This document shows positions 2,945 through 20,038 of a stretch of 20,038 nt of DNA, piece by piece. Position 1 is the first letter of the stretch, and every line of letters starts with the position of its first letter. The notes beneath the pieces were generated by a model. That model was not told the origin of the DNA. It did not search any database and saw only the letters and a program-made list of their open reading frames with translations. This DNA is from a virus: the UHGV virus genome UHGV-1340863. One strand, given 5' to 3'. A program made the translations under genes and the position numbers.

Positions 2945-2982
2945 ATGCTTGGGTTACATGAGTCAAATAGAAAAAAGATACT

Positions 2983-3010
2983 TGATTTAACAGAGATTTA
3001 TTTTATAAAT
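2983..3010 (+). promoter_or_regulatory. Candidate sigma70 promoter upstream of the TIR gene (TTGATT-N16-TATAAA)
   Basis: TTGATT at 2983-2988 and TATAAA at 3005-3010 with 16-nt spacing in an AT-rich leader. Pattern match only. Confidence 0.25.
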
Positions 3011-3031
3011 GAGAGGGTGCAGAATTACGTA

Positions 3032-3052
3032 GCAATACATGCTGCAATACAT
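3032..3052 (+). repeat. Direct repeat GCAATACAT x2 (candidate integrase arm-type sites, attL side)
   Basis: gcaatacat at 3032-3040 and 3044-3052; the same GCAATACA motif recurs at the other element end (13525-13561). Confidence 0.5.
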
Positions 3053-3162
3053 GGTTAGGGAAAAGCCTTCTTGGCATCGTACAAAAAACAAACCGAATTT
3101 TTTCTAACACAGCCAAGTAAAGCCTCCTTCACTTAATTAGTTAAATTATAAAGGAATATTCA

Positions 3163-4305
3163 ATGAAAATTTTTCTTGCTCATGCAAAAGAAGATGAAAC
3201 GATAACTGAAGAAATCTATGAAAGGCTAAAAAGTGGAGGATATTCCCCTTGGATGGATGTAAAAGATATACCCGCTGGCGTAAACTGGGATTATGAAATC
3301 CAAAAAAACTTCGCTAATTCAAACTTGATAATCCTTATCCTTAGCAAAGTGAGCACTCAGAAAAATGGTTATATTCGCCGCGAAATAAATGACGCCATTG
3401 ATAAACTAAAGTATTACAAACCAGATGATGTGTTCGTGATACCATTACTTATTGATGATTGCGAAGTACCCGCCTACATATCAAGCAAGCTCCAATTCAT
3501 TGATTTTAAGAGAAATGATGGTTGGGACATTTTATCTAGATCTTTAAGATTAGCAGCATCGCAACAAAAACTTGAAATATCTCAAGGTATCACTTATGGG
3601 CCATTTAACTTTAGCAGCGAGGTTTTCAAGGAAGAATATAACAAGATCCCAGGGCATGAAATTGAAATAGCATATCCAAGAATTGAAAGCCATACATTAC
3701 CGAAATCAGCAAAACTCATTAGTGATTACTTTTCAGGAAAAGCGGCTTTACATATTTTTTCTGAACGCACATCACTATGGCCAGGAACACCATATTGGGA
3801 TGAAGAATATAAACACACTTACACTAGTTCCTATAATGAAAGTTATAACATCTCATACTGTAACGAAAATGTCATGAGCATCCTTCATTCCGTACATTGG
3901 TATGGTGCGGGAGCAGCACACCCTAACAGTCATTTTGAAACTAGTAATTTCGTAATAACCAAGGATGACTACGCATACAAATTTAGTTTATGGGATGTAT
4001 TTACCGAAGGGAAAGAGCAAGAAGCGATTAATAAGATAAAACAAAAAATAATCTCTGAATCAGCTCGTGAATTTTGGGAGAAAACTGGTGAAAAACCAAG
4101 TGAGGACGACATTAGTACGTTTGCAACGGGTATCATGGATAGTAACTTAGACTCGTTCACAATAAATAGTGATGGATTTAGATTCCATTTTGCACCTTAC
4201 GAAATTCATGCATATGCTTTTGGTTCTTGGGAATTCTTTATCTCATTCTTTGAAGTAATAGACTTCCTTAAAGAGGATGGAATTTACTCTCTAATAAGGA
4301 GTTAA
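3163..4305 (+). CDS. TIR-domain protein (N-terminal TIR about 135 aa plus about 245-aa C-terminal domain of unknown function); candidate anti-phage NADase-type defence protein
   Basis: 380-aa ORF with AAGGAA Shine-Dalgarno 7 nt upstream of ATG. The N-terminus MKIFLAHAKEDE...GYSPWMDVKDIPAGVNWDYEIQKNFANSNLIILILSKVSTQKNGYIRREINDAIDK...DDVFVIPLLID has the bacterial TIR pattern, with a candidate catalytic Glu near residue 74 in YIRREI. Strongly AT-rich compared with its neighbours. I cannot assign the C-terminal domain by eye. Confidence 0.75.
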   Translation: MKIFLAHAKEDETITEEIYERLKSGGYSPWMDVKDIPAGVNWDYEIQKNFANSNLIILILSKVSTQKNGYIRREINDAIDKLKYYKPDDVFVIPLLIDDCEVPAYISSKLQFIDFKRNDGWDILSRSLRLAASQQKLEISQGITYGPFNFSSEVFKEEYNKIPGHEIEIAYPRIESHTLPKSAKLISDYFSGKAALHIFSERTSLWPGTPYWDEEYKHTYTSSYNESYNISYCNENVMSILHSVHWYGAGAAHPNSHFETSNFVITKDDYAYKFSLWDVFTEGKEQEAINKIKQKIISESAREFWEKTGEKPSEDDISTFATGIMDSNLDSFTINSDGFRFHFAPYEIHAYAFGSWEFFISFFEVIDFLKEDGIYSLIRS

Positions 4306-4314
4306 CATTTCAAT

Positions 4315-4337
4315 AAGCCTGAAATTTAATCAGGCTT
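4315..4337 (+). terminator. Hairpin downstream of the TIR gene (candidate intrinsic terminator)
   Basis: aagcctga (4315-4322) / tcaggctt (4330-4337) with a 7-nt loop, followed by an A/T-rich tail atatacatttcc; begins 10 nt after the TIR stop codon. Confidence 0.4.
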
Positions 4338-4659
4338 ATATACATTTCCTTATGATTAAATTATTGCTGTTCTTAAGCAAAGATGCAGCCAGAAGTAATT
4401 CCCCCTCAAGCTTGCTTGCACACATAAAGAACTGACACAAAACTCTGCTGTAAAGTTGTCTAGCCACACAGCAAAAAACATATGAAACTTTGTTATTCGC
4501 AAACTGCTTGCTCTATATTCCACCATCAAGGCGCATAAAGCAATTGCAATGGCGCAGAAGTAGGCCATAACTATGAAGTGAAGCTAGCGGCGCGTTATTG
4601 GCCGCTTCTGAATAGTGCCTGATTCAACTCAGGGATAAGATTTTTTCTGGTGATAGACC

Positions 4660-4850
4660 GCGACGGATGGCAACAAAACCAGAGAAAGGAAACGACAGAG
4701 GCCAAAAAGCCTGTTTTTAGCACCTGTCGTTTCCTTTCTTTTTAGGGGGTGTTTTTAATAAAAACATTAAGTTACGGCGAAGAAGAACGGAAACGCCTTA
4801 AACAGGAAAATTTTCACAAATAGCAAAAAACTGCGCGCCTGACGCCCCGT
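4660..4850 (-). other. Second, element-borne lambda-type cos site (cosB-like R/I-site region plus variant cosN-like sequence)
   Basis: 4674-4840 aligns by eye, same orientation, with the helper cosB at 19872-20038, differing at roughly 10 positions. The adjacent cgcgcctgacgccccgtaacg (4829-4849) resembles the lambda cosN region (GTTACG GGGCGGCGACCT CGCGGG, from memory) but is variant. Confidence 0.8.
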
Positions 4851-4903
4851 AACGTTCTGGATCGCCGGAAAGGACCCGCCAGCCAGAGCGGGCCCTAATT
4901 TCA

Positions 4904-5287
4904 TCAACCAATCAGCTTATAGCGACCATCCCGTGCATTGCGGCGTACACGCTCAATCTTGAGGCATAGCGCCGCATCTGGCTTTTTTGGGACAGGTACG
5001 CGGCAATATTCAGAAGCGCGAGGAATATTATTTATCCAGTCGATCACTTCACTTAAATACCAGGCCTTACGCCCTTCCGTAACCTGCACACGCTCCGGGA
5101 ACTCTCCACTAGCCTCAAGGTTTAGCAGTGTACGACGACTCAGGGTTGTAATTTCCATCACCTGATTCATATCAACAAGGCGCTCGCTTAAACACATTTT
5201 GTCAGCGATAGCTTTTAATTCCTCTACAGCTTGATTCGGGTACATCATTTCGGCAATTGGCTTAAGGTCATTGTAATCATTCTGCAT
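4904..5287 (-). CDS. AlpA/excisionase-family wHTH protein, cos-adjacent (function unknown; regulator or packaging-redirection candidate)
   Basis: 127-aa ORF with AAGGGGGA SD. The segment ITTLSRRTLLNLEASGEFPERVQVTEGRKAWYLSEVIDWINN has the AlpA/Xis-type HTH signature; the gene ends 54 nt from the element cos. Confidence 0.6.
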   Translation of the reverse strand: MQNDYNDLKPIAEMMYPNQAVEELKAIADKMCLSERLVDMNQVMEITTLSRRTLLNLEASGEFPERVQVTEGRKAWYLSEVIDWINNIPRASEYCRVPVPKKPDAALCLKIERVRRNARDGRYKLIG

Positions 5288-5298
5288 TGTATCCCCCT

Positions 5299-5640
5299 TT
5301 ACACACGAGCCAGCGGCTGAACAGAAATACCTGAGCCAACAAACGCTGCAACCTTTACTGACAGTTCTTTAACAGACTCAGGCCAGTTCAGAGCATCAAC
5401 ATTTAAGACACCTGTCTTATAGACCTGAGCCTGTGTTTTTTTCGCGGTGTCGATTTGTACAGCGGAAACATAAACCGCTTTACCTACGCTCGAACCATCC
5501 CATACCACCAGTGCACCTGTTGCATCTTCCTGCATCAGTGGCGTAAATGCAGGAATTACCCCTTTATTAGCTGAAAATATCCCCAGCGTAGTCACCAGTG
5601 CTTCAGTGCCAGCCATGAGTTCAGTGTAATGAGTAGCCAT
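5299..5640 (-). CDS. Head decoration protein, lambda gpD-like (element-encoded paralogue)
   Basis: 113 aa; TPLMQEDATGALVVWDGSS...YKTGVLNVDALNWPESVKELSVKVAAFVGSGISV aligns with lambda D ([19 protein letters not shown]...[34 protein letters not shown]). AAGGGGGAG SD; start 10 nt after the E-like gene stop. Confidence 0.8.
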   Translation of the reverse strand: MATHYTELMAGTEALVTTLGIFSANKGVIPAFTPLMQEDATGALVVWDGSSVGKAVYVSAVQIDTAKKTQAQVYKTGVLNVDALNWPESVKELSVKVAAFVGSGISVQPLARV

Positions 5641-5649
5641 TGCTCCCCC

Positions 5650-6690
5650 TTAGCCAATGCGAACGGTAACAAAACGATTGATGCGGGCCGGTATTGGCTG
5701 TGGTGCTGAATGTGTCTGCACATATTCAATAGCCGGATCACCAGGCACAATATAGTTTTTCGGTGCAAGTTCGGCTTTAGTCAGCCCCATTCGGATTAGC
5801 TCCGGATCCTGAATACCGCCATAGGCGACAATCCCCTGAAGAGCCGTATTGCCAAGCACCATCAAATCAGGATCAAGGAAATGTTTTTCTGTTCCGTCCT
5901 CGTCGGTATAACGCCCGCTGTAAACAACAATCGCAACATCGCCCATATACCCTTTAAAACTCACCGAATCACCAAGGTCTTTAAGGGCCGTTTCCAGTTC
6001 GGAATTAGAACCACGACGGGTATCCAGAGCCTCTTTTATCGCTCTGAATGAACGGTATTTCTTCCATACATTACCGCCCATAATGATAATATTAGTGACG
6101 CCCTCACTAAATTCTGCGTAGCTCTCAATATCATCATTTGGATCAAAAGTTTCTTTATCCTTACCTGACCACTCAGCACCGCCAGACTGAGTGATGATAT
6201 TTTGTGGTTTAATATTCCAGTCCAGCTCATAACGTTCAATACCATCGCCCTCAATGATATTTTTCCCCGTTGTGATTGCCTGAACAGCAAGCCATTCAAT
6301 ACGTGCACGAATAGCTTTAGCTTGATTTACAATCGCCTGTTTAACTTTAATATTACGCGCCCCAAAAGCATTGTATTGCTCAGGTGATACACCAGCAGGG
6401 CGCACAGCTAACTTATTTGGATCAATGCTGCTTTTCGGCTTCATATAGCCTGGACGAATTGTTTTTGATTCGTACCCTTCGTCACGTGAAACTTTACTAC
6501 CCACCATAGGAGAACAAAACGCTGCAATTGGGATATTTGGATCGTCGATTGTATCAAGAATAATATCGCGCGATTCAAACATTACCGAGCGAGTAAAAAA
6601 CAAACTGGTAAACAACGCATTTAGTTGTTTTTGTACATCTACAGCATTAACCACCTGTACAAGCTGAGTAGGCGAATATAAATCAACCAT
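5650..6690 (-). CDS. Major capsid protein, lambda gpE-like (element-encoded, diverged paralogue of the interrupted helper E)
   Basis: Aligns with lambda E along its whole length, e.g. NIITQSGGAEWSGKDKETFDPNDDIESYAEF vs NNITQSGGTEWSKRDKSTYDPTDDIEAYALN, and FRAIKEALDTRRGSNSELETALKDLG...GDVAIVVYSG vs FKAVKEKLDTRRGSNSELETAVKDLG...GDVAIVVYSG. Start set at ATG 6688-6690 (MVDLYSPTQL..., SD AGAGG) rather than the ORF-track start at 6864; 346 aa vs 341 for E. Confidence 0.85.
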   Translation of the reverse strand: MVDLYSPTQLVQVVNAVDVQKQLNALFTSLFFTRSVMFESRDIILDTIDDPNIPIAAFCSPMVGSKVSRDEGYESKTIRPGYMKPKSSIDPNKLAVRPAGVSPEQYNAFGARNIKVKQAIVNQAKAIRARIEWLAVQAITTGKNIIEGDGIERYELDWNIKPQNIITQSGGAEWSGKDKETFDPNDDIESYAEFSEGVTNIIIMGGNVWKKYRSFRAIKEALDTRRGSNSELETALKDLGDSVSFKGYMGDVAIVVYSGRYTDEDGTEKHFLDPDLMVLGNTALQGIVAYGGIQDPELIRMGLTKAELAPKNYIVPGDPAIEYVQTHSAPQPIPARINRFVTVRIG

Positions 6691-6864
6691 ACGCATCCTC
6701 TTTGCATTCATTAAAAATAATTGTGGATATATGCTATCACCGATATTTGTCATGCGAATACATGCAACCGAGTGCAATGTTGTATAAAGTTTTGGGGTGA
6801 CAACTTCAGTGCGGAAAATTAGTGTTAATATCTTCACTCCCTTTGGTCGGGATTTATGTAGCAT

Positions 6865-6899
6865 GCCGGAAAATTTATTTTTTCCGGCCTTTTTTTATT
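6865..6899 (+). terminator. Strong intrinsic-terminator-like hairpin, active in plus orientation
   Basis: gccggaaaa (6865-6873) / ttttccggc (6880-6888) stem followed by a run of T residues (6889-6899). On the minus strand the stem is not followed by a U-tract. Confidence 0.5.
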
Positions 6900-6907
6900 G
6901 GCAATAT

Positions 6908-7357
6908 TTAAAACGGGATATCATCTCCCCATTGCTCATTATCTCCCACTGGTGGCTGGCTTCCTTGCTGATCTGCCTGTTGTTTTGCTCTGTTCAGTGC
7001 GTCAGTAGCCTGCCCCTGTTGGCCTTTATTGCCGCCCGGTCGCACCGATCGCGCACTGATTACGCTGTCTGCGATAACCTGCCAGCCCTGCCGCGTTTCG
7101 CCGTTCTGTCCAGTCCACTGGCTCATCTGCATGTTACCCGCCACGCTCAGGAGTTCGCCTTTGTGATGCTTTGCCAGCGCGTCGGCTTGTCTGCCAAACG
7201 CCAGGACAGATAACCACATCGTCGCCTGACCGTCATCCGACTGACTGCAGGGCAGTGATACCGCCATACGCGCCAGCGTCATGGGGGTGCCCTTGCTGGT
7301 CTGTTTTGTCTGCGGGTCGTCCACCAACCGCCCGTAAACTGATATTTGCGCCGTCAT
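6908..7357 (-). CDS. ssb: Single-stranded DNA-binding protein (SSB)
   Basis: 149 aa; N-terminal OB-fold-like region (ISVYGRLVDDPQ..., WTGQNGETRQGWQVIADSV), Gly/Gln-rich linker and the hallmark acidic C-terminal tail ...WGDDIPF. GGAGAG SD; ATGA overlap with the upstream ORF. Confidence 0.8.
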   Translation of the reverse strand: MTAQISVYGRLVDDPQTKQTSKGTPMTLARMAVSLPCSQSDDGQATMWLSVLAFGRQADALAKHHKGELLSVAGNMQMSQWTGQNGETRQGWQVIADSVISARSVRPGGNKGQQGQATDALNRAKQQADQQGSQPPVGDNEQWGDDIPF

Positions 7358-7599
7358 GCTGCCTGCTCTCCGGACTTAATATTGATTGTTGTCACTTCCT
7401 CCGCTTCAGCAATCTCCCGTTCGGTCAGAGTGGCAAAGTTTGCAGCCGCCGTTGTCATGAATGCGCTAATCAGTTCGGGATGTGCTTTCGCGTATCCTTC
7501 CCCGGCGTTGCGGTCGATGATTTTTATCGACACCCTTAACCAGTGTTCCGTCAAATCAAGGGCGTGCGATTGTGATTTTTTTGTGTGCTTCGCTGTCAT
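7354..7599 (-). CDS. Hypothetical protein (81 aa), translationally coupled to ssb
   Basis: ORF between the iteron cluster and ssb; its stop overlaps the ssb start (ATGA). No recognisable motif; weak RBS. Confidence 0.45.
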   Translation of the reverse strand: MTAKHTKKSQSHALDLTEHWLRVSIKIIDRNAGEGYAKAHPELISAFMTTAAANFATLTEREIAEAEEVTTINIKSGEQAA

Positions 7600-7650
7600 A
7601 GGCTTTATCTCACAGCAGTAAATTAAAATTTTTGCGTTTTAACCCTTCAC

Positions 7651-7873
7651 CTGTTCACCTTTTGATATTTTCTCTTTTAATTCATAATGTTAATTGGTGA
7701 ACAGTTTCACAAAAACTATTCACCAACTGTTCACCACTGTTCACCCTTGAAGCTCAATAAACAATCAAAAAGGTGAACAGTGAATAGTTTGGTGAACAGT
7801 TCATAAATAACTGTTCACCCTATAATATACTGATATAAAAGATATTTATGACAGGGTGAACAGTGGTGAACAG
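7651..7873. repeat. Iteron cluster: at least 9 copies of GGTGAACAG/CTGTTCACC in both orientations; candidate satellite origin of replication
   Basis: Copies at 7651-7659, 7696-7704, 7727-7735, 7737-7745, 7772-7780, 7791-7799, 7811-7819, 7855-7863 and 7865-7873, embedded in AT-rich DNA immediately downstream of the replication-protein gene. Confidence 0.8.
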
Positions 7874-7886
7874 TTATTCCATAAGT

Positions 7887-9707
7887 TTAATTTTTGCTAT
7901 CGTCATTAGTGACCGATACACATGATGGCATCCAGTCTTCTGATTCCTCCGTCAGTGTCACGTTTGAACGCAAACCGTGCTTCGTTTTCCGTTTCATATA
8001 CTCCCTGCCATATTCCGCCATTGCCCCCGGCATATCTTTACCGAAGCGCGTCAGTGTTACAGGTTTACCAAACCCATGTGCCCTCATATAAGCCAGATAG
8101 GCATGATAGAGATACCTGCGTGGGCTGAATGGCACAATTTCAGCATTACCCACTAACAGGCCATCACACATTACCGATGCCATGAGATAGCCGCAGAAGT
8201 CCACCAGCGAATCCCCCTCTCGCTTTATCGCCAGTGCTTCTTCAGATTTCTGCTGCTCATATAACAGGCGTCTGGCTTCGTCCTGATCAGCAAACCGTGT
8301 AAGCAGATGGCGAATCACTACCGCCAGCTCACCTTCTATTTTTTCCGCCAGCATCGAATCGCGTTCGTTCTCCGGTACAACTTCCGAAAAATTGAATATC
8401 ACCCGACGACGTGAGATCCCCCCGCTGCGGTCACTGAATGACATGGCGTTATTGTTAACCGCCAGCACTACTGCCGGAATACGCGTTGAATAGGGGGCTT
8501 TGTGTTTCGGGTCAATTGCCACCTTGTCACCGCCTGTAATGGCCTTAATCCCTGCCCCATCACCAGCGTAGCGGGTCATATCCGGCATGATAATCAGCGA
8601 AAAGCCAACCACTAACGCACGTTCCCTTGCATCTTCCAGCGCCTTCATGCTTGCTGATACTGTATTAGCCTTACCCGCCAGCATGGTGCAAATCTCCGCC
8701 ATCACACTTTTACCACTTCCCCCCGGCCCTGTTACCTCAATGAATAACTGCCAGTCGTACCGGTTCGCCAGCACCATGAATAATGCCGCCAGTACGCGAT
8801 CTGCCTTGCGGTCATTCTCAGCCACCGAACGGCGCAACCACTTCCAGAAATTCGGCGCATGTGTTGCCAGCGTTTCCCCCTCTGCTGGTGGGCTGAAAGG
8901 TAATTCACTGGCAATTAACAACCAGTCGTTTTTGTTATGCTCCCGAAAGTTACCAGTTCTGGTATCAAATACCCCGTTACTGAATCCAATCAGGTTACGG
9001 GCTGTATTCCCCATTACAGGCAAACTTAACTTCATGGTATCTACCGCCGATTTAATAGCGTTCTGCGAATAGCTGATCTCCGCATCAATGAAAATCTGCG
9101 CCATAGCACGCTGTAACTCTTTATCCTGAACCGGCTCCCATACAACGCCGTTGTAATGATGAACGGTGTCAGAGTCGGCATTGATTGCCAGTTCGCCGCC
9201 GTAATGTGCAAGGAGAACTTCACCGCGCTGGCTGGCCCCCATCTGATTCAACGCCAAAGATGAAGCACGCTCGTCATTTTTGCGCTCAGCCTTCTTAACT
9301 GGCAGTTCAATCACCAGACTTTCCCCATGCTCCGCTTCAGCTTTTAGGCCGACAAGGCGCGGAGTCCAGTCTTCAGGCTCTCGATCAACAAAGCTACGGT
9401 AACAACGTGCTTCCTTTACGCCTGCAATAGCAAGTAATGTCGCAACCTTCGTCAGACTTTTCTCTGCAATCTTTCCGGCACGATAAACACGCACATAATG
9501 ACGGCCTTCATCGATAATTTGCATATCATCCAGGTTTTCCAGTTGTTCCGTACCCAGAATGACTGGTGGTGTATCATCTGCTGCAATATGCTTACCTGCC
9601 CATTCATTCCATTCTTTTGCATGGCTCCAGGCATCACTGCCAGCAAAAATGATGACTTCCGTCATTTTGTCGCGCGGTTGGTATTTTAAGTTCGGAGCAC
9701 GTTTCAT
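7887..9707 (-). CDS. Replication initiator: D5/P4-alpha-type SF3 helicase-primase (PICI Pri-Rep-like)
   Basis: 606 aa; Walker A motif VTGPGGSGKS with a downstream hydrophobic stretch ending in acidic residues (LIIMPDM); overall resemblance to the C-terminal NTPase of phage/plasmid primases. GGAGGT SD; ATGA overlap with the upstream small ORF; iterons directly downstream. Confidence 0.75.
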   Translation of the reverse strand: MKRAPNLKYQPRDKMTEVIIFAGSDAWSHAKEWNEWAGKHIAADDTPPVILGTEQLENLDDMQIIDEGRHYVRVYRAGKIAEKSLTKVATLLAIAGVKEARCYRSFVDREPEDWTPRLVGLKAEAEHGESLVIELPVKKAERKNDERASSLALNQMGASQRGEVLLAHYGGELAINADSDTVHHYNGVVWEPVQDKELQRAMAQIFIDAEISYSQNAIKSAVDTMKLSLPVMGNTARNLIGFSNGVFDTRTGNFREHNKNDWLLIASELPFSPPAEGETLATHAPNFWKWLRRSVAENDRKADRVLAALFMVLANRYDWQLFIEVTGPGGSGKSVMAEICTMLAGKANTVSASMKALEDARERALVVGFSLIIMPDMTRYAGDGAGIKAITGGDKVAIDPKHKAPYSTRIPAVVLAVNNNAMSFSDRSGGISRRRVIFNFSEVVPENERDSMLAEKIEGELAVVIRHLLTRFADQDEARRLLYEQQKSEEALAIKREGDSLVDFCGYLMASVMCDGLLVGNAEIVPFSPRRYLYHAYLAYMRAHGFGKPVTLTRFGKDMPGAMAEYGREYMKRKTKHGLRSNVTLTEESEDWMPSCVSVTNDDSKN

Positions 9708-9991
9708 TTGTTACCTCCGGCAACTAACATTGCCCGAATTTTACGGATATAGCCTGCGGCACGCCTCTGATTATCTGTCTTGCAATTTTTTACCAGAATG
9801 AAATCTCTTTCGAACTGCTGACGCGGCATAACACATTCAAAATCATAACCATCACGCAAATAAGAGACACGACGATCATCAACCGAAATAATCTTTACCC
9901 GATAGCCATAGCTGTCTTTGAAAATATCCCCAAGGCTGATTTTTGAATGAGTTTGACCGCTGGCAATAAAGCCAGAAAATTTATTTTTCAT
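9704..9991 (-). CDS. Hypothetical protein (95 aa), replication operon
   Basis: ORF in an operon-like array with stop/start overlap to the helicase-primase gene; no recognisable motif. Confidence 0.5.
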   Translation of the reverse strand: MKNKFSGFIASGQTHSKISLGDIFKDSYGYRVKIISVDDRRVSYLRDGYDFECVMPRQQFERDFILVKNCKTDNQRRAAGYIRKIRAMLVAGGNK

Positions 9992-9994
9992 TTT

Positions 9995-10219
9995 TTATTC
10001 TCCGGTATAGCTCTGGTCGTGTATTTTTATAGCTTCATCCAGCTCTTTGATGACAGGATCAAGTAACGTAATTAACGCTCCAGCTAAATTAGCATCCCGT
10101 TCATCGTGTTCCGCATTTGTTGTCCCATCAAGCCAGGTTGATAAGATTTCTCGCATATTTTTGCCACAAACGAGCGCGTTTTCAGCATGTGTCAGCACTT
10201 TAAAATAAAGATCATTCAT
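9995..10219 (-). CDS. Hypothetical protein (74 aa), replication operon
   Basis: Strong AGGAGGTG SD upstream of ATG at 10217-10219; overlaps the end of the upstream ORF by 8 nt. Confidence 0.5.
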   Translation of the reverse strand: MNDLYFKVLTHAENALVCGKNMREILSTWLDGTTNAEHDERDANLAGALITLLDPVIKELDEAIKIHDQSYTGE

Positions 10220-10577
10220 GGCACACCTCCTGACGAATACGGGCGGCGAATATCATCACGTAGCCAGTTGGGAATTGCTGGCGGGCTTCCTGTTCGCTGG
10301 CGGCCTCGATGTGTATTACGCGTGGTTGTGCGGTGCTCAGGGCGATAAAACGCCAGATGAAATTGTTTTCGCATTTCTGAATAAACAGCGTGTTTTCTTC
10401 ACGCCCTTTCCAGAAAGCCGCAGTATAGCCCATCTCCTTAACCATCTTGCGGGCATCAACCAGCGTGTCAGCGGCAACATGTACCGTAGTTGCTCCATCT
10501 GCCATGCGGTCGTGGTGTAGTGCCAGAAAGGTGTATATAAATTTAGGGTGAGTTTGGGTATGCTGTGTTCCAGCCAT
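10212..10577 (-). CDS. Hypothetical protein (121 aa), first gene of the leftward replication operon
   Basis: C-terminal 121 codons of the 304-aa track ORF, starting at ATG 10575-10577 (MAGTQHTQTH...) with a GAGGT SD. The long N-terminal extension in the track overlaps the operator region and the divergent gene and is rejected. Confidence 0.5.
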   Translation of the reverse strand: MAGTQHTQTHPKFIYTFLALHHDRMADGATTVHVAADTLVDARKMVKEMGYTAAFWKGREENTLFIQKCENNFIWRFIALSTAQPRVIHIEAASEQEARQQFPTGYVMIFAARIRQEVCHE

Positions 10578-10664
10578 AATCGTTACCTCGTTTAACGGTT
10601 TGGTTAGAAGCCCGGTTAGTGTTCGCGCACTGCCGGGTTTCGTCGTTTTTATGAATCGATCATT

Positions 10665-10766
10665 GTGAGATACATAGCGACCATGATGTGAGATATACAT
10701 TATATTGTGGTGATATACATTGCAAGTGTTTTTATATCTCACTTTTGTGTATAGTGATATACACAT
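10665..10766. promoter_or_regulatory. Operator-like repeat cluster (GTGAGATA(TA)CAT x5, one inverted) in a divergent promoter region
   Basis: gtgagatacat 10665-10675, gtgagatatacat 10688-10700, gtgatatacat 10710-10720, inverted tatatctcac 10733-10742, gtgatatacacat 10754-10766; lies between the divergent genes starting at 10577 (-) and 10786 (+). Confidence 0.6.
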
Positions 10767-10785
10767 AACAAATTGGTGATTAACT

Positions 10786-11088
10786 ATGTCTGTATACAAA
10801 AATGCAAAATCGCAAATGACAACGATCAGGGTTCCCCACGATGTTATGGAGGGCATGGAATCCGTAAAACTGGACGGCGAAAGCAACGCCGGATTCATAG
10901 TAACCGCCATGCGCGGTGAGATCGCCCGCCGCCAGGCAGAAGGAAGCGGAGAAAATCCCCTCGTGTCTTCACTGGATGCCTTAGCTAAGGTCGAACAAAT
11001 CGGCATCAAGGCAGCGGAGGAAATCGGGCAACTCGTAGCCGTCGCTCGTGAAGAACTCCAGCGGCGTAAAGCCAAAGAATCTGAATAA
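10786..11088 (+). CDS. Putative small DNA-binding regulator (possible ribbon-helix-helix fold), divergent from the replication operon
   Basis: 100-aa ORF with GGTGA SD; N-terminal TTIRVPHDVMEGMESV resembles an RHH beta-strand/helix start. Position next to the operator repeats fits a repressor or activator role. Fold assignment is a guess. Confidence 0.45.
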   Translation: MSVYKNAKSQMTTIRVPHDVMEGMESVKLDGESNAGFIVTAMRGEIARRQAEGSGENPLVSSLDALAKVEQIGIKAAEEIGQLVAVAREELQRRKAKESE

Positions 11089-11097
11089 TTACTATCA

Positions 11098-11124
11098 GCG
11101 CCGTGATGTGAGTAACTACGGCGC
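11098..11124 (+). terminator. Hairpin downstream of the regulator gene
   Basis: gcgccgt (11098-11104) / acggcgc (11118-11124) stem with 13-nt loop, 10 nt after the stop codon; the downstream tail is only moderately T-rich. Confidence 0.35.
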
Positions 11125-11438
11125 ATTGCTATGTAAATACTGGCAATAAACAGAAAAGGTAGTTCTACTCCGAATAATTTTATCTGACACTACTCCTGAA
11201 CTAACATGCGCTTATCTTACAGGATATAAATATAGATCCATAAAATCACGATTAAATAAAGTCGCTCCAAACATAAACCACACCCAACGCTTAACAAGAT
11301 AGCAACAAACAGATAAATAACTTGCAGAAATATTTATCGCAAGGATTATCATTATTAATTACAAATCACTTTACCAAGTCATTCCCCTCTCTTATCATAA
11401 AGAGAAAGTAATAAATAAGTTAAGGGAGTTAGAATACT

Positions 11439-11975
11439 ATGAATCTAAAAAAAATAGCCACAAACATAAAAAACAAGATAATAGAAACATTCAATAAACT
11501 TATATTAGAGGCATCTAAAACCCCCACACAAGATGAAATTAAAATACTTGAGAGAAGAAGTAAAAAGTTTAATTACTCCTTTTTCTCATACGCAGTCACA
11601 GGAGCCATAATGGTTTTTTGCTCTCAACCATTAATAAAATACGCAAACCCAATGCTTATTTTATTGAGTGGTCTGTTACTGTCTATCATCATTATCCTTC
11701 TCAGAATGATTTATATTTCACAAGCGAATGCATCATGGACAACCAAAAAACGTTCACATGTACTAGTTCATTTTCTTTCTGCATGTTTCATAGCGTCAAC
11801 ATTGACGTTGTTATATCAGGCTTACGATAATAACATCACACACAAATTGTACTGTAAAAATATACAACAACTTATTGAAAAAAGGATAGAAACAGAAAAA
11901 AATATCAGCATATTCAGTGGGATGCAATGCACCCCGGCATATGATTACTCTTTATTTGGATTTAATCTCTTATAA
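11439..11975 (+). CDS. AT-rich multi-pass membrane protein (178 aa), function unknown; cargo gene candidate
   Basis: Three hydrophobic helices (AVTGAIMVFCSQPLI, MLILLSGLLLSIIIILLRMIYI, VLVHFLSACFIASTLTLLYQAY); GGGAG SD upstream; strongly AT-rich island (about 11100-12040) flanked by GC-richer element genes. Confidence 0.6.
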   Translation: MNLKKIATNIKNKIIETFNKLILEASKTPTQDEIKILERRSKKFNYSFFSYAVTGAIMVFCSQPLIKYANPMLILLSGLLLSIIIILLRMIYISQANASWTTKKRSHVLVHFLSACFIASTLTLLYQAYDNNITHKLYCKNIQQLIEKRIETEKNISIFSGMQCTPAYDYSLFGFNLL

Positions 11976-12044
11976 AGAATGTTATTACTGATTTGAGTGC
12001 AAATTCTCAAATCAGTAATTCATAATATTTTATTCTGAGATAAT

Positions 12045-12272
12045 TTAAACTACCCACTCACCTCGAATCCATGCCTGCACTTCTGAAAGACGATATGCAA
12101 CAGCAGTGGAGCCAATCTTGATCCGCTTAGGAAATTTCCCTTCCTTCTCCAGCTTCCAGCGTGTGCTGTTCGCAAGAGTGGTTAGCTCCCGACATTCTTT
12201 CTCACGGATCATACGATCGATGTTAGGAATGTACTCCAGACCCTTTTTATCAACAATCGCCATTTTTTTCAT
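12045..12272 (-). CDS. AlpA-family HTH protein (excisionase / transcriptional activator candidate)
   Basis: 75 aa; LTTLANSTRWKLEKEGKFPKRIKIGSTAVAYRLSEVQAWIRGE matches the AlpA/Xis HTH pattern (..EGKFPKP.K.G.R...W...E.Q.WI); directly downstream of int. Confidence 0.75.
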   Translation of the reverse strand: MKKMAIVDKKGLEYIPNIDRMIREKECRELTTLANSTRWKLEKEGKFPKRIKIGSTAVAYRLSEVQAWIRGEWVV

Positions 12273-12273
12273 G

Positions 12274-13509
12274 TTAACCAGCCTTTTGTTTGAGGATTAT
12301 CACTTTTGAATCAGCACCTGCGATGCTATTGAGATATGTAGTCCAGAGTTCCAGAGCATCCAGTTTTTTAGCCATAAACTTACTCCGGTTGTAAACACCT
12401 GCCACGCCAGGTAGCGCATGGCCTAACAGTTGTTCTACTACATAAAATTCAACACCGAGATCACTTAGATGAGTAGATAGCGTTCTTCTAAGGTCGTGTA
12501 GTGACCATTGTTTTTCATGGCCCAAACGTTTACCGATTTTCCCCCCAATCTTGCTTACGCTTTCTCTAATTCGCAGACTTCCCAGCACATAACCAGTATG
12601 TTTTGTCTCTTCGTGAACATCCGTTACCCACTGTCGTAGAATTTCAGGTACTGGTCTGACGATTTCAACACCAGTTTTTGAGTGATCTTTTGGTACAGTC
12701 CAAACCCAACTTTCGAGATCCCATTCGCTCCATTCTGATAATCGGGCTTCACTCATTCGACATCCAAATACTGTACAAAGTACAAACATTTTTCGCGTGT
12801 ATTCAGACATTAGTTTTAAATCAGGCTCGACAAAAATTGCTTTCCAGAGCTGGCCCAGCTCGGCTTCATCCAGAACCCGATCCCGCTTACCTGCAATCTG
12901 CCCCACATCACTCATGCGCAAATCCTTTAAAGCATCACACGTCGCGTACTGGCGTACCCGACAAAAACGAAGAGCTAATTTAGTGTCAGAAAAAACATAC
13001 GCCGCCATAACTGGTGCATTACGTTTAATTCGGTCAAAACAGTCCAGCCATTCATATAGGTGAGTGTCATTTACAGGCAAATGACCGATATAGGGAAAAA
13101 TATGCTTTCGAAATCTGCCAAGCGTTACAGCATGAGTTTTACGACGCACCTTACAGTAATTTTCATACCAGTAATTTAGTGCATCCTCCACTGTGACCGG
13201 CTTTAAGCGTTCTTCAGCCTGAATCTTAATCTGGATACGCGGATCACGTTTGTCAGCCAACCAACCACGGCACTCGTCGCGCTTTTCCCTTGCCTGTTTG
13301 AGTGACATATCAGGATATTTACCCAACGTTAGCCAGACCGGAGCAGCCCGGCCACCTGCTAACCTGTAGAAGAAAACAAAGCTCACAGCCCCCTTGGTAC
13401 TCACACGAATAGAAAGCCCCTTTCCATCAGCAATGGTGATCTGCTTTTCTCTGGGTTTCCCCAGATATCCTTTAAGTGCTTTGTCGCTCAGTTTGTTCTC
13501 GCCAGCCAT
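12274..13509 (-). CDS. int: Tyrosine site-specific integrase (P4-type, N-terminal arm-binding domain)
   Basis: 411 aa from ATG 13507-13509 (MAGENKLSDK...); C-terminal catalytic region with HDLRRT and LLGH motifs plus a downstream Tyr; terminal gene of the element, beside the right junction. Confidence 0.88.
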   Translation of the reverse strand: MAGENKLSDKALKGYLGKPREKQITIADGKGLSIRVSTKGAVSFVFFYRLAGGRAAPVWLTLGKYPDMSLKQAREKRDECRGWLADKRDPRIQIKIQAEERLKPVTVEDALNYWYENYCKVRRKTHAVTLGRFRKHIFPYIGHLPVNDTHLYEWLDCFDRIKRNAPVMAAYVFSDTKLALRFCRVRQYATCDALKDLRMSDVGQIAGKRDRVLDEAELGQLWKAIFVEPDLKLMSEYTRKMFVLCTVFGCRMSEARLSEWSEWDLESWVWTVPKDHSKTGVEIVRPVPEILRQWVTDVHEETKHTGYVLGSLRIRESVSKIGGKIGKRLGHEKQWSLHDLRRTLSTHLSDLGVEFYVVEQLLGHALPGVAGVYNRSKFMAKKLDALELWTTYLNSIAGADSKVIILKQKAG

Positions 13510-13524
13510 TTTAAGCCCCAAAAA

Positions 13525-13561
13525 GCAATACAAGCTGCAATACAGAGATGATTGCAACACA
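13525..13561 (+). repeat. Direct repeats GCAATACA x2 plus GCAACACA (candidate integrase arm-type sites, attR side / int leader)
   Basis: gcaataca at 13525-13532 and 13537-13544, gcaacaca at 13554-13561; same motif and orientation as 3032-3052 at the opposite end. Confidence 0.5.
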
Positions 13562-13641
13562 CAGATAACGAGGAAAATCCAGTGAAAGCGCCAGATAGAC
13601 TTATTCTTTATTATCAAAAGATTAAGTGTAAAAACCAGCAA

Positions 13642-13917
13642 CTACACGAAAGCCTCAGAAAGCCATGCTAAGTGCTTCGGCTTGACATATCCCGGCGTAA
13701 ATTCAGAGGTGGAGCCGCCACGGGAACGGATAACCTCACCGGAAACAATCGGCGAAACGTACAGCGCCATGTTTACCAGTCCCGGAATTTGTGAGAGATA
13801 GACTTTCTCCGTGGTGAAGGGATAGCTCTCACGGAAAAAGAGACGCAGAAACAGCGGATCAAACTTAAATTTCTGCTCATTTGCCGCCAGCAGCTGGGCG
13901 GTTGTGTACATCGACAT
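13642..13917 (-). pseudogene. E: Major capsid protein E, N-terminal 82 codons fused to 9 element-derived codons and a stop
   Basis: MSMYTTAQLLAANEQKFKFDPLFLRLFFRESYPFTTEKVYLSQIPGLVNMALYVSPIVSGEVIRSRGGSTSEFTPGYVKPKH matches lambda E 1-82, then LAWLSEAFV-stop encoded by element sequence (13642-13671). Confidence 0.9.
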
Positions 13918-15634: not shown

Positions 15635-19315
<3,681 letters not shown>

Positions 19316-19341
<26 letters not shown>

Positions 19342-19861
19342 TCAGCAACCCCGGTATCAGTTCATCCAGCGCGGCTGCTTTGTTCATGGCTTTGATGATA
19401 TCCCGTTTCAGGAAATCAACATGTCGGTTTTCCAGTTCCGGAAAACGCCGCTGCACCGACAGGGGGATCCCGTCGAGAATACTGGCAATTTCACCTGCGA
19501 TCCGCGACAGCACGAAAGTACAGAATGCGGTTTCCACCACTTCAGCGGAGTCTCTGGCATTTTTCAGCTCCTGTGCGTCGGCCTGCGCACGCGTAAGTCG
19601 ATGGCGTTCGTACTCAATAGTCCCTGGCTGGAGATCTGTCTCGCTGGCCTGTCGCAGTTCTTCAACCTCCCGGCGCAGCTTTTCGTTCTCAATTTCAGCA
19701 TCCCTTTCGGCATACCATTTTATGACGTCGGCAGAGTCATAAAGCACCTCATTACCCTTCCCACCGCCTCGCAGAACGGGCATTCCCTGCTCCTGCCAGT
19801 TCTGAATAGTACGGATACTCGCGCCGAAAATGTCAGCCAGCTGCTTTTTGTTGACTTCCAT
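19316..19861 (-). CDS. Nu1: Terminase small subunit Nu1
   Basis: 181 aa, MEVNKKQLADIFGASIRTIQNWQEQGMPVLRGGGKGNEVLYDS... matches lambda gpNu1, with the usual overlap into A. Confidence 0.93.
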
Positions 19862-20038
19862 TGTTCATTCCACGGACAAAAACAGAGAAAGGAAACGACA
19901 GAGGCCAAAAAGCCCGTTTTCAGCACCTGTCGTTTCCTTTCTTTTCAGGGAGTGTTTTAAATAAAAACATTAAGTTACGGCGAAGAAGAACGGAAACGCC
20001 TTAAACCGGAAAATTTTCATAAATAGCGAAAACCCGCG
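19862..20038 (-). other. Helper cosB region (Nu1-binding R sites and IHF site); window ends at the edge of cosN
   Basis: Reverse complement reads CGCGGGTTTTCGCTATTTATGAAAATTTTCCGGTTTAAGGCGTTTCCGTTCTTCTTCG...GAAAGGAAACGACAGG..., matching the left end of the lambda genome just after the 12-nt cohesive end GGGCGGCGACCT (from memory). Confidence 0.85.

Follow-up and report, generated by a model that had tools for sequence, protein, structure and literature searches.

A lambda-like left arm split in capsid gene E

The window, which is the whole 20,038-nt stretch of viral DNA analyzed here, carries the left arm of a lambda-like prophage on the minus strand, with genes in the order Nu1, gpA, W, B, C/Nu3, D, E (split), FI, FII, Z, U, and V. 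The terminase small subunit Nu1, which binds the R sites, is encoded at 19316-19861 on the minus strand (Pfam Phage_Nu1, E 3e-100), and a PDB search matched its residues 1-98 to the lambda TerS chain 6hn7_B (E 2.5e-58). The large subunit gpA, which nicks cosN, is encoded at 17416-19341 (minus strand), as assigned by lambda homology and by the annotation of a composite from E. coli Rb-23. The cosB of this helper phage occupies 19876-20038 on the minus strand, with R1 at 19886-19900, R2 at 19928-19943, and R3 at 19983-19998. The last base of the window, 20038, falls at the right-hand nick position of the helper and immediately precedes the 12-nt overhang; the helper cosN and cosQ are therefore absent from the window. 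Both were taken from near-identical satellite-helper composites, L003 (E. coli Rb-23) and L143. The former is 99.99% identical to the window, and its RefSeq annotation was used for gene contents. Considering that the window stops exactly at a nick position, the source record may have been linearized at cos. Exactly 100 N are found at 2493-2592, where the Rb-23 composite has ∼513 bp corresponding to the 3' end of E, the E-FI intergenic spacer, and the first FI codons. Because the N run hides these ∼513 bp, the 267-aa ORF at 2138-2941 is a mask/gap artifact.

Gene E is split by a satellite of 10,719 bp, a helper-embedded PICI, at 2954-13672 (minus strand). Lambda homology breaks at 2953 and 13673, corresponding to lambda positions 6372 and 6379 and thus to E codons 80-82. 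Codons 1-82 of E run up to 13673, and the remainder of the gene resumes at 2953. When the flanks are joined, the E frame is open with no stop, and lambda E is matched at 99.5% identity over the 199 aa that can be read up to the N mask. Within the satellite, GC falls to 35-50%. As assigned from the RefSeq annotation of the Rb-23 copy and confirmed by Pfam scans, its genes encode, in order, a tyrosine integrase, AlpA, small regulatory proteins, a D5-type primase, SSB, capsid, decoration, helix-turn-helix, and TIR proteins, and all except the TIR gene, which is on the opposite strand, share the strand of Nu1 through V. The succession int, alpA, regulatory genes, primase, and late genes is the gene order expected of a PICI. 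The insertion at E codons 80-82, this gene order, and the direction of the late operon match the satellite to the HE-PICI type Eco567.11capE, site group E:Phage_cap_E:80, as characterized in the published description (PMC10111431).

The integrase gene (12274-13509, minus strand) is followed by the AlpA gene at 12045-12272, and 24 composites have a relative of this integrase, with 88-100% identity, at the same site in E. In the late zone, on the minus strand, are homologues of the major capsid protein E (5650-6690, 42% identity to lambda E) and of the decoration protein D (5299-5640, 38% identity to lambda D over 78 aligned residues). The last satellite gene before cos, at 4904-5287 (minus strand), encodes a 127-aa AlpA-family protein (Pfam Phage_AlpA, E 7.5e-9; PDB hit 8c3t). 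This is a second AlpA-family gene, with an N-terminal extension, at the end of the late zone and separate from the integrase-adjacent AlpA. Between cos and the satellite end, in 35%-GC DNA, lies a TIR-DUF3298 cargo gene (3163-4305, plus strand), whose product weakly resembles anti-phage TIR proteins in NCBIfam. The corresponding slot in sister satellites encodes proteins annotated as abortive-infection, DUF262/HEPN, or DUF2971, or a Nu1-like protein, and looks like a defense-gene hotspot. Just downstream of the primase gene, the AT-rich stretch 7673-7888 contains dense direct and inverted copies of TGGTGAACAGTT, a cluster that looks like the satellite replication origin (iterons); the ori of PICIs is reported to follow pri.

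Anatomy of the satellite cos

A direct repeat of 163 nt, with 93% identity (11 mismatches), was identified by the repeat finder between 4673-4835 and 19876-20038, at a spacing of 15,203 bp. The other direct repeats in the window are at most 32 nt long with 64-81% identity, which puts the 163-nt repeat far beyond chance. The original prediction of a near-copy of the helper cosB, in the same orientation and running on into a variant cosN, was thus borne out, with CGTTACGGGGCGTCAGGCGCGCAG (minus strand) found at 4830-4853. In the Rb-23 composite, alignment of one cos site with the other extends for 206 nt (90% identity), through cosN to cosQ. Element-helper similarity starts at cosQ and stops ∼10 nt past R1, and thus spans the functional cos alone. 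The stretch 4673-4877 is a complete lambda-type cos in the same orientation as the helper cos.

All subsites of this cos lie on the minus strand. The first, cosQ (GGGTCCT, 4871-4877), is a highly conserved 7-bp site (PMC4669245) that begins, as it does in lambda, 30 nt ahead of the top-strand nick and is the sole GGGTCCT in the window. Alignment with lambda and the Rb-23 helper places the 12-nt cosN overhang, GGGCGTCAGGCG, at 4836-4847, with predicted nicks between 4848 and 4847 on the minus strand and between 4835 and 4836 on the plus strand. In a three-way alignment with lambda, written in lambda orientation with the overhang set off by slashes, the element reads GGGTCCTTTCCGGCGATCCAGAACGTTACG / GGGCGTCAGGCG / CGCAGTTTTTTGC... 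and the helper reads GGGTCCTTTCCGTCGATCCAACAGGTTACG / GGGCGGCGACCT / CGCGGGTTTTCGC... The spacer between cosN and R3 (the I2 region, 4796-4835) has the lambda length and holds five of the 11 substitutions. It is followed in cosB by R3 (CGTTTCCGTTCTTCTT, 4780-4795), the R3-R2 region (4741-4779, three substitutions versus the helper), which contains the IHF site I1 in lambda (position from PMC9026076), R2 (AAGAAAGGAAACGACA, 4725-4740), and R1 (TGTCGTTTCCTTTCT, 4683-4697). R3, R2, and R1 are each identical to their counterparts in the helper and lambda; the R sites, 47 nt in all, contain none of the 11 substitutions in the 163 nt (hypergeometric p = 0.02). The cosN-to-R3 spacing is the same as in lambda and the helper. 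Annotation of the R sites, cosN, and cosQ by alignment to lambda, which had been proposed as a check, therefore finds every subsite at lambda spacing, and the R sites, the disruption of which would have counted against the proposal, are intact. No further cosN or cosQ match was found elsewhere in the window, which leaves one visible cosN/cosQ set.

R2 and R1 form an inverted repeat with a predicted hairpin of -38 kcal/mol (z = -7.3) followed by a U-rich stretch, and there are weak terminator-like matches. It is conceivable that this repeat serves mainly to terminate transcription at the satellite operon's end, although the same hairpin is found in every lambda cosB and is here accompanied by R3, cosN, and cosQ, which a terminator does not need. 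Moreover, terminator-like matches are no more numerous than in shuffled sequence. We therefore rejected this role for the hairpin, which we regard as extremely improbable.

The overhang allele and the cosB modules of the family

The element overhang GGGCGTCAGGCG differs from GGGCGGCGACCT, the overhang of lambda and of the helper of the near-identical composite, at positions 6, 8, 9, 10, and 12. This agrees with the suggestion that the variant cosN could change the cohesive end, five of 12 bases being predicted to differ from both lambda and the helper. The nick flanks (ACG before and CGC after the overhang), bases 1-5, and base 11 are conserved. Four of the five changes (8, 9, 10, and 12) are in the right half, the fifth being G6T. 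Differences at bp 7-12 are common among lambda-like phages, without measurable effect on cleavage, and lambda terminase is not cosN-specific (PMC4669245). A 19-mer spanning the variant overhang is present in 57 viral contigs, in four of which the variant overhang heads a lambda-type left arm (Nu1-gpA operon), outside any satellite. One prophage (L131) has the variant overhang as its own cosN, in a cos that is otherwise lambda-type, with Nu1 and gpA 98.9% identical to those of the window. Judging from these contexts, GGGCGTCAGGCG is a natural cosN allele that a few lambda-like prophages use as their own cosN. Because prophages with near-identical terminase use the same allele, the variant overhang appears to be tolerated, and the satellite cosN should be cuttable by a helper-type terminase.

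Other alleles exist. When a deposited phage with the same cosN region was sought, the best matches were ∼88% identical and the top two carry a third allele, GGGCGGAAGGCG, which is found in the GenBank phage records PhiR46_1 and YDC107_1. Further helper overhangs, GGGCGGCGTCCG, GGGCGGCGTCCT, GGGCGACGTCCG, and GGGCGGCAGACT, are seen in L183, L186, L189, L190, and L198, whose gpA are 88-90% identical. In all the overhang alleles seen, bases 1-5 and base 11 are constant. These comparisons indicate that cosN is naturally polymorphic in this group of lambda-like phages and that near-identical terminases serve different alleles. The alleles are unevenly distributed. The variant overhang is found in 51 satellite contexts versus four phage contexts, and the lambda overhang, among the matches listed, in at least 82 phage contexts and at least 24 (approximately) non-phage contexts. 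A full-text literature search for the 12-mer GGGCGTCAGGCG returned no relevant paper.

The distribution of cos sites in related satellites was surveyed in 80 loci with a gene for the AlpA-like protein; one was too short to score, leaving 79. In 79/79 scorable loci, cos directly follows the AlpA-like gene. The overhang is GGGCGTCAGGCG in 49 of them and of lambda type in 28, and there are two singletons. At least three kinds of cosB are present in the surveyed loci, namely lambda type, R3 only, and without lambda R sites, the module having been swapped repeatedly across the family. In almost every relative examined, the start of the AlpA-like gene lies at -434 to -436 nt relative to the cosN match (one is at -397), and this distance, essentially fixed for every cosB type, argues against a cosB-specific role for the protein.

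The gene that follows cosB also varies. Where the downstream gene was examined, a cosB without lambda R sites precedes a Nu1-family gene whose product is 36-39% identical to Nu1 and diverges at its N terminus. In L146 (13988-14539), L151, and L198, this gene encodes a 171-183-aa protein and lies directly after such a cosB. The 183-aa protein of sister satellites has no PDB or NCBIfam match; considered as a possible Rpp, it was left for this reason as a Nu1-family protein. It is possible that the 171-183-aa protein acts as a small terminase subunit of the satellite, with a DNA specificity of its own. In some satellites that have a lambda-type cosB, the slot filled by the TIR cargo in the window element is taken by a Nu1-like gene (70-72% identity). 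In L147 (from 19319 onward), L005, L009, and L022, this Nu1 homologue accompanies a lambda-type cosB. The L147-type homologue begins 193 nt after the cosN match, about as Nu1 does in lambda, and in its N-terminal DNA-binding part it hardly differs from the helper protein, whereas the C terminus is different. Considering that both routes are present in one satellite family, the cosB module and the gene that follows it look like an exchangeable cassette. In six viral contigs (L211, L218, L221, L236, L247, and L281), there are two lambda-type cosN cores, inverted and 525-870 bp apart, an arrangement reminiscent of cos1/cos2 of EcCICFT073.

The combination of lambda overhang and lambda cosB was found in 0/79 satellites and in 0/24 composites. 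Among the 24 composites in which both cos are visible, 21 differ in the overhang, three share the overhang and differ in cosB, and none matches in both; many of the contigs are near-identical, so that these counts are not independent events, the independent events are few, and plain descent could give the same picture. Selection might prevent embedded satellites from ever having the same cos as their helper in every respect, the different overhang being an end-incompatibility device, a view that we hold to be possible and rather unlikely. Mixed-cos chromosomes, or helper ends joined to satellite ends, would then fail to close, which would keep the two genomes of a composite apart during packaging and after injection. 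Under such selection, the overhang would differ where cosB is shared, and where the overhang is shared, cosB would differ and the satellite would bring its own Nu1-like subunit. If the overhang difference is adaptive, it would be a simple and undescribed way for an embedded parasite to separate two packaging products.

Proposed packaging by the helper terminase and comparison with known satellites

Taken together, the features described above indicate that 4673-4877 probably functions as the cos of this satellite, a helper-embedded PICI. Its R sites match those of the helper exactly, the spacing is unchanged, and no Rpp/Nu1 gene is found in the element, so helper Nu1/gpA should recognize the satellite cos and cut it directly. 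Since cosB is helper-type, no specificity-changing protein would be needed, and none was detected at the sequence level as a Nu1 or Rpp homologue in the element. A search with its concatenated small proteins against a PDB copy that includes 6HN7 (the RppC-TerS complex) matched an AlpA structure alone, and the 70-aa product of the same-direction ORF after cosB has no similarity to Nu1 or to anything else found. The 127-aa AlpA-like protein was considered as an Rpp/Nu1 candidate and rejected, having weak helix-turn-helix likeness to Nu1 (E 0.06) and no Rpp match. The satellite is thus predicted to offer the helper's small terminase subunit an unaltered binding site, without Rpp reprogramming, as its way into helper capsids.

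In the sequence of events that we propose, the satellite would leave gene E upon induction of the prophage, thereby restoring E, and would replicate from its own primase and origin. The helper terminase would then act on satellite concatemers, with Nu1 binding R3, R2, and R1 and gpA nicking the adjacent variant cosN. DNA of the excised circle would enter in the direction cosB, TIR gene, att, int, and on to the capsid genes, until packaging stops at a later cosQ/cosN. Because the satellite overhang differs, satellite ends would pair together and mismatch helper ends at five of 12 bases. The predicted ends GGGCGTCAGGCG would also provide a direct read-out for satellite particles in virome or induced-lysate sequencing. 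The predicted packaging of the element by helper terminase fits what has been published on related PICIs and on elements of this type (PMC10111431 and PMC6092414). The cos sites of EcCICFT073 are needed for transfer by lambda and phi80 (PMC6092414), and the authors of the 11capE study, according to its main text, presumed packaging via the helper cos machinery (PMC10111431).

The satellite cos could instead be an inert relic of helper DNA, acquired by recombination or late-gene capture and unused in packaging. PICIs of this kind are described in the published text as capturing helper late genes (PMC10111431), E- and D-like satellite genes adjoin the cos, and virions or plaques from the published 11capE composite strain were undetected according to the same text (PMC10111431). 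Against this, each functional subsite is intact while the spacers have diverged, and cos directly follows the AlpA-like gene in 79 of the 80 relatives despite repeated swaps of cosB. In addition, the element, which has no terS and no other cosN/cosQ match in the window, would have no other route into capsids. We consider such a relic very unlikely.

Functional use of the satellite cos after excision is also to be weighed against its use while the satellite is still embedded, with terminase cutting both sites and packaging the 15.2-kb piece or the complementary one. The geometry claimed in the original prediction, that two cos sites split the composite, stands, since they are in direct orientation and 15,203 bp apart; packaging of the 15.2-kb piece, which that geometry seemed to allow, is unlikely. 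According to the published text, the composite excises and replicates whole before satellite excision (PMC10111431), and, if it measures ∼61 kb as published, the distance from satellite cos to helper cos would be ∼46 kb, a length suited to the head. Neither piece would contain a whole phage, the head genes being absent from one and the remaining phage genes from the other. The 15.2-kb piece corresponds to ∼31% of the lambda genome, and terminal cos are reportedly cut poorly in underfilled heads (Feiss and Siegele 1979). Furthermore, the ends of a mixed-cos molecule mismatch at five of 12 bases, and a 2-base cohesive-end mismatch already lowers viable yield ∼4-fold (PMC4669245), which makes such products more likely dead ends than a mode of packaging. 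We therefore judge cutting in the embedded state to be very unlikely. With a composite of ∼61 kb as published, packaging of the unexcised composite from helper cos to helper cos would exceed head capacity. Because of this excess size and the split E, satellite excision would be needed to restore both E and a packageable helper size. For 11capE, others have demonstrated both excision and replication (PMC10111431).

Eco567.11capE, which lies in prophage 50icd of E. coli NRG857c (Tommasini, Mageeney and Williams 2023, PMC10111431), is the closest known system, and 201 elements are reported in the E:Phage_cap_E:80 site in the text of that study (PMC10111431). Common to 11capE and the window element are int, alpA, a primase, an own capsid gene, the lack of terS, and a cos-like stretch shared with the helper. 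In 11capE, as described in the published text, this stretch is 258 bp at 90% identity to the helper, at the lambda cos position, which is also the cos position of other PICIs, and PICI capsid genes are reported to be dispensable for transfer (PMC10111431). The shared cos being already present in that text, the core finding is published in outline, and a satellite cos is ordinary for the class. The main text of that paper contains no occurrence of cosN, cosB, or cohesive end and no dissection into subsites (PMC10111431). The overhang allele with its near-restriction to satellites, and a satellite cos that differs from that of its helper in cosN or cosB, appear not to have been described in the literature searched.

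Like the window element, EcCICFT073 is an E. coli PICI that uses a lambda-type terminase and has its own cos, a conserved cosQ and cosQ-cosN spacing, and no terS (PMC6092414, PMC6739421, and PMC9026076). In EcCICFT073, the helper cosN is kept and cosB is foreign, being read by an Rpp-TerS heterodimer (PMC6092414, PMC6739421, and PMC9026076), whereas the window element shows the reverse, with the helper cosB kept and a different cosN overhang. EcCICFT073 has cos1/cos2 and Rpp, whereas the window element has one cos and no detectable Rpp. At the sequence level, the latter is not of the Rpp type, since lambda R sites are present and no rpp gene was found beside cos.

Carpena et al. 2016 reportedly describe SaPIbov5 as a cos-type staphylococcal island with a capsid homologue, Ccm. 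Like the window element, SaPIbov5 combines the helper's cos with a homologue of the helper major capsid protein, although it differs in its Gram-positive host, unrelated sequences, and chromosomal integration site. Finally, cosN variation in N15 and gifsy-1 (PMC4669245) resembles that of the element in that bp 1-5 and the nick flanks are kept and changes fall mostly within bp 7-12, whereas the element allele has five changes, including bp 6, and occurs mainly in satellites rather than in phages.
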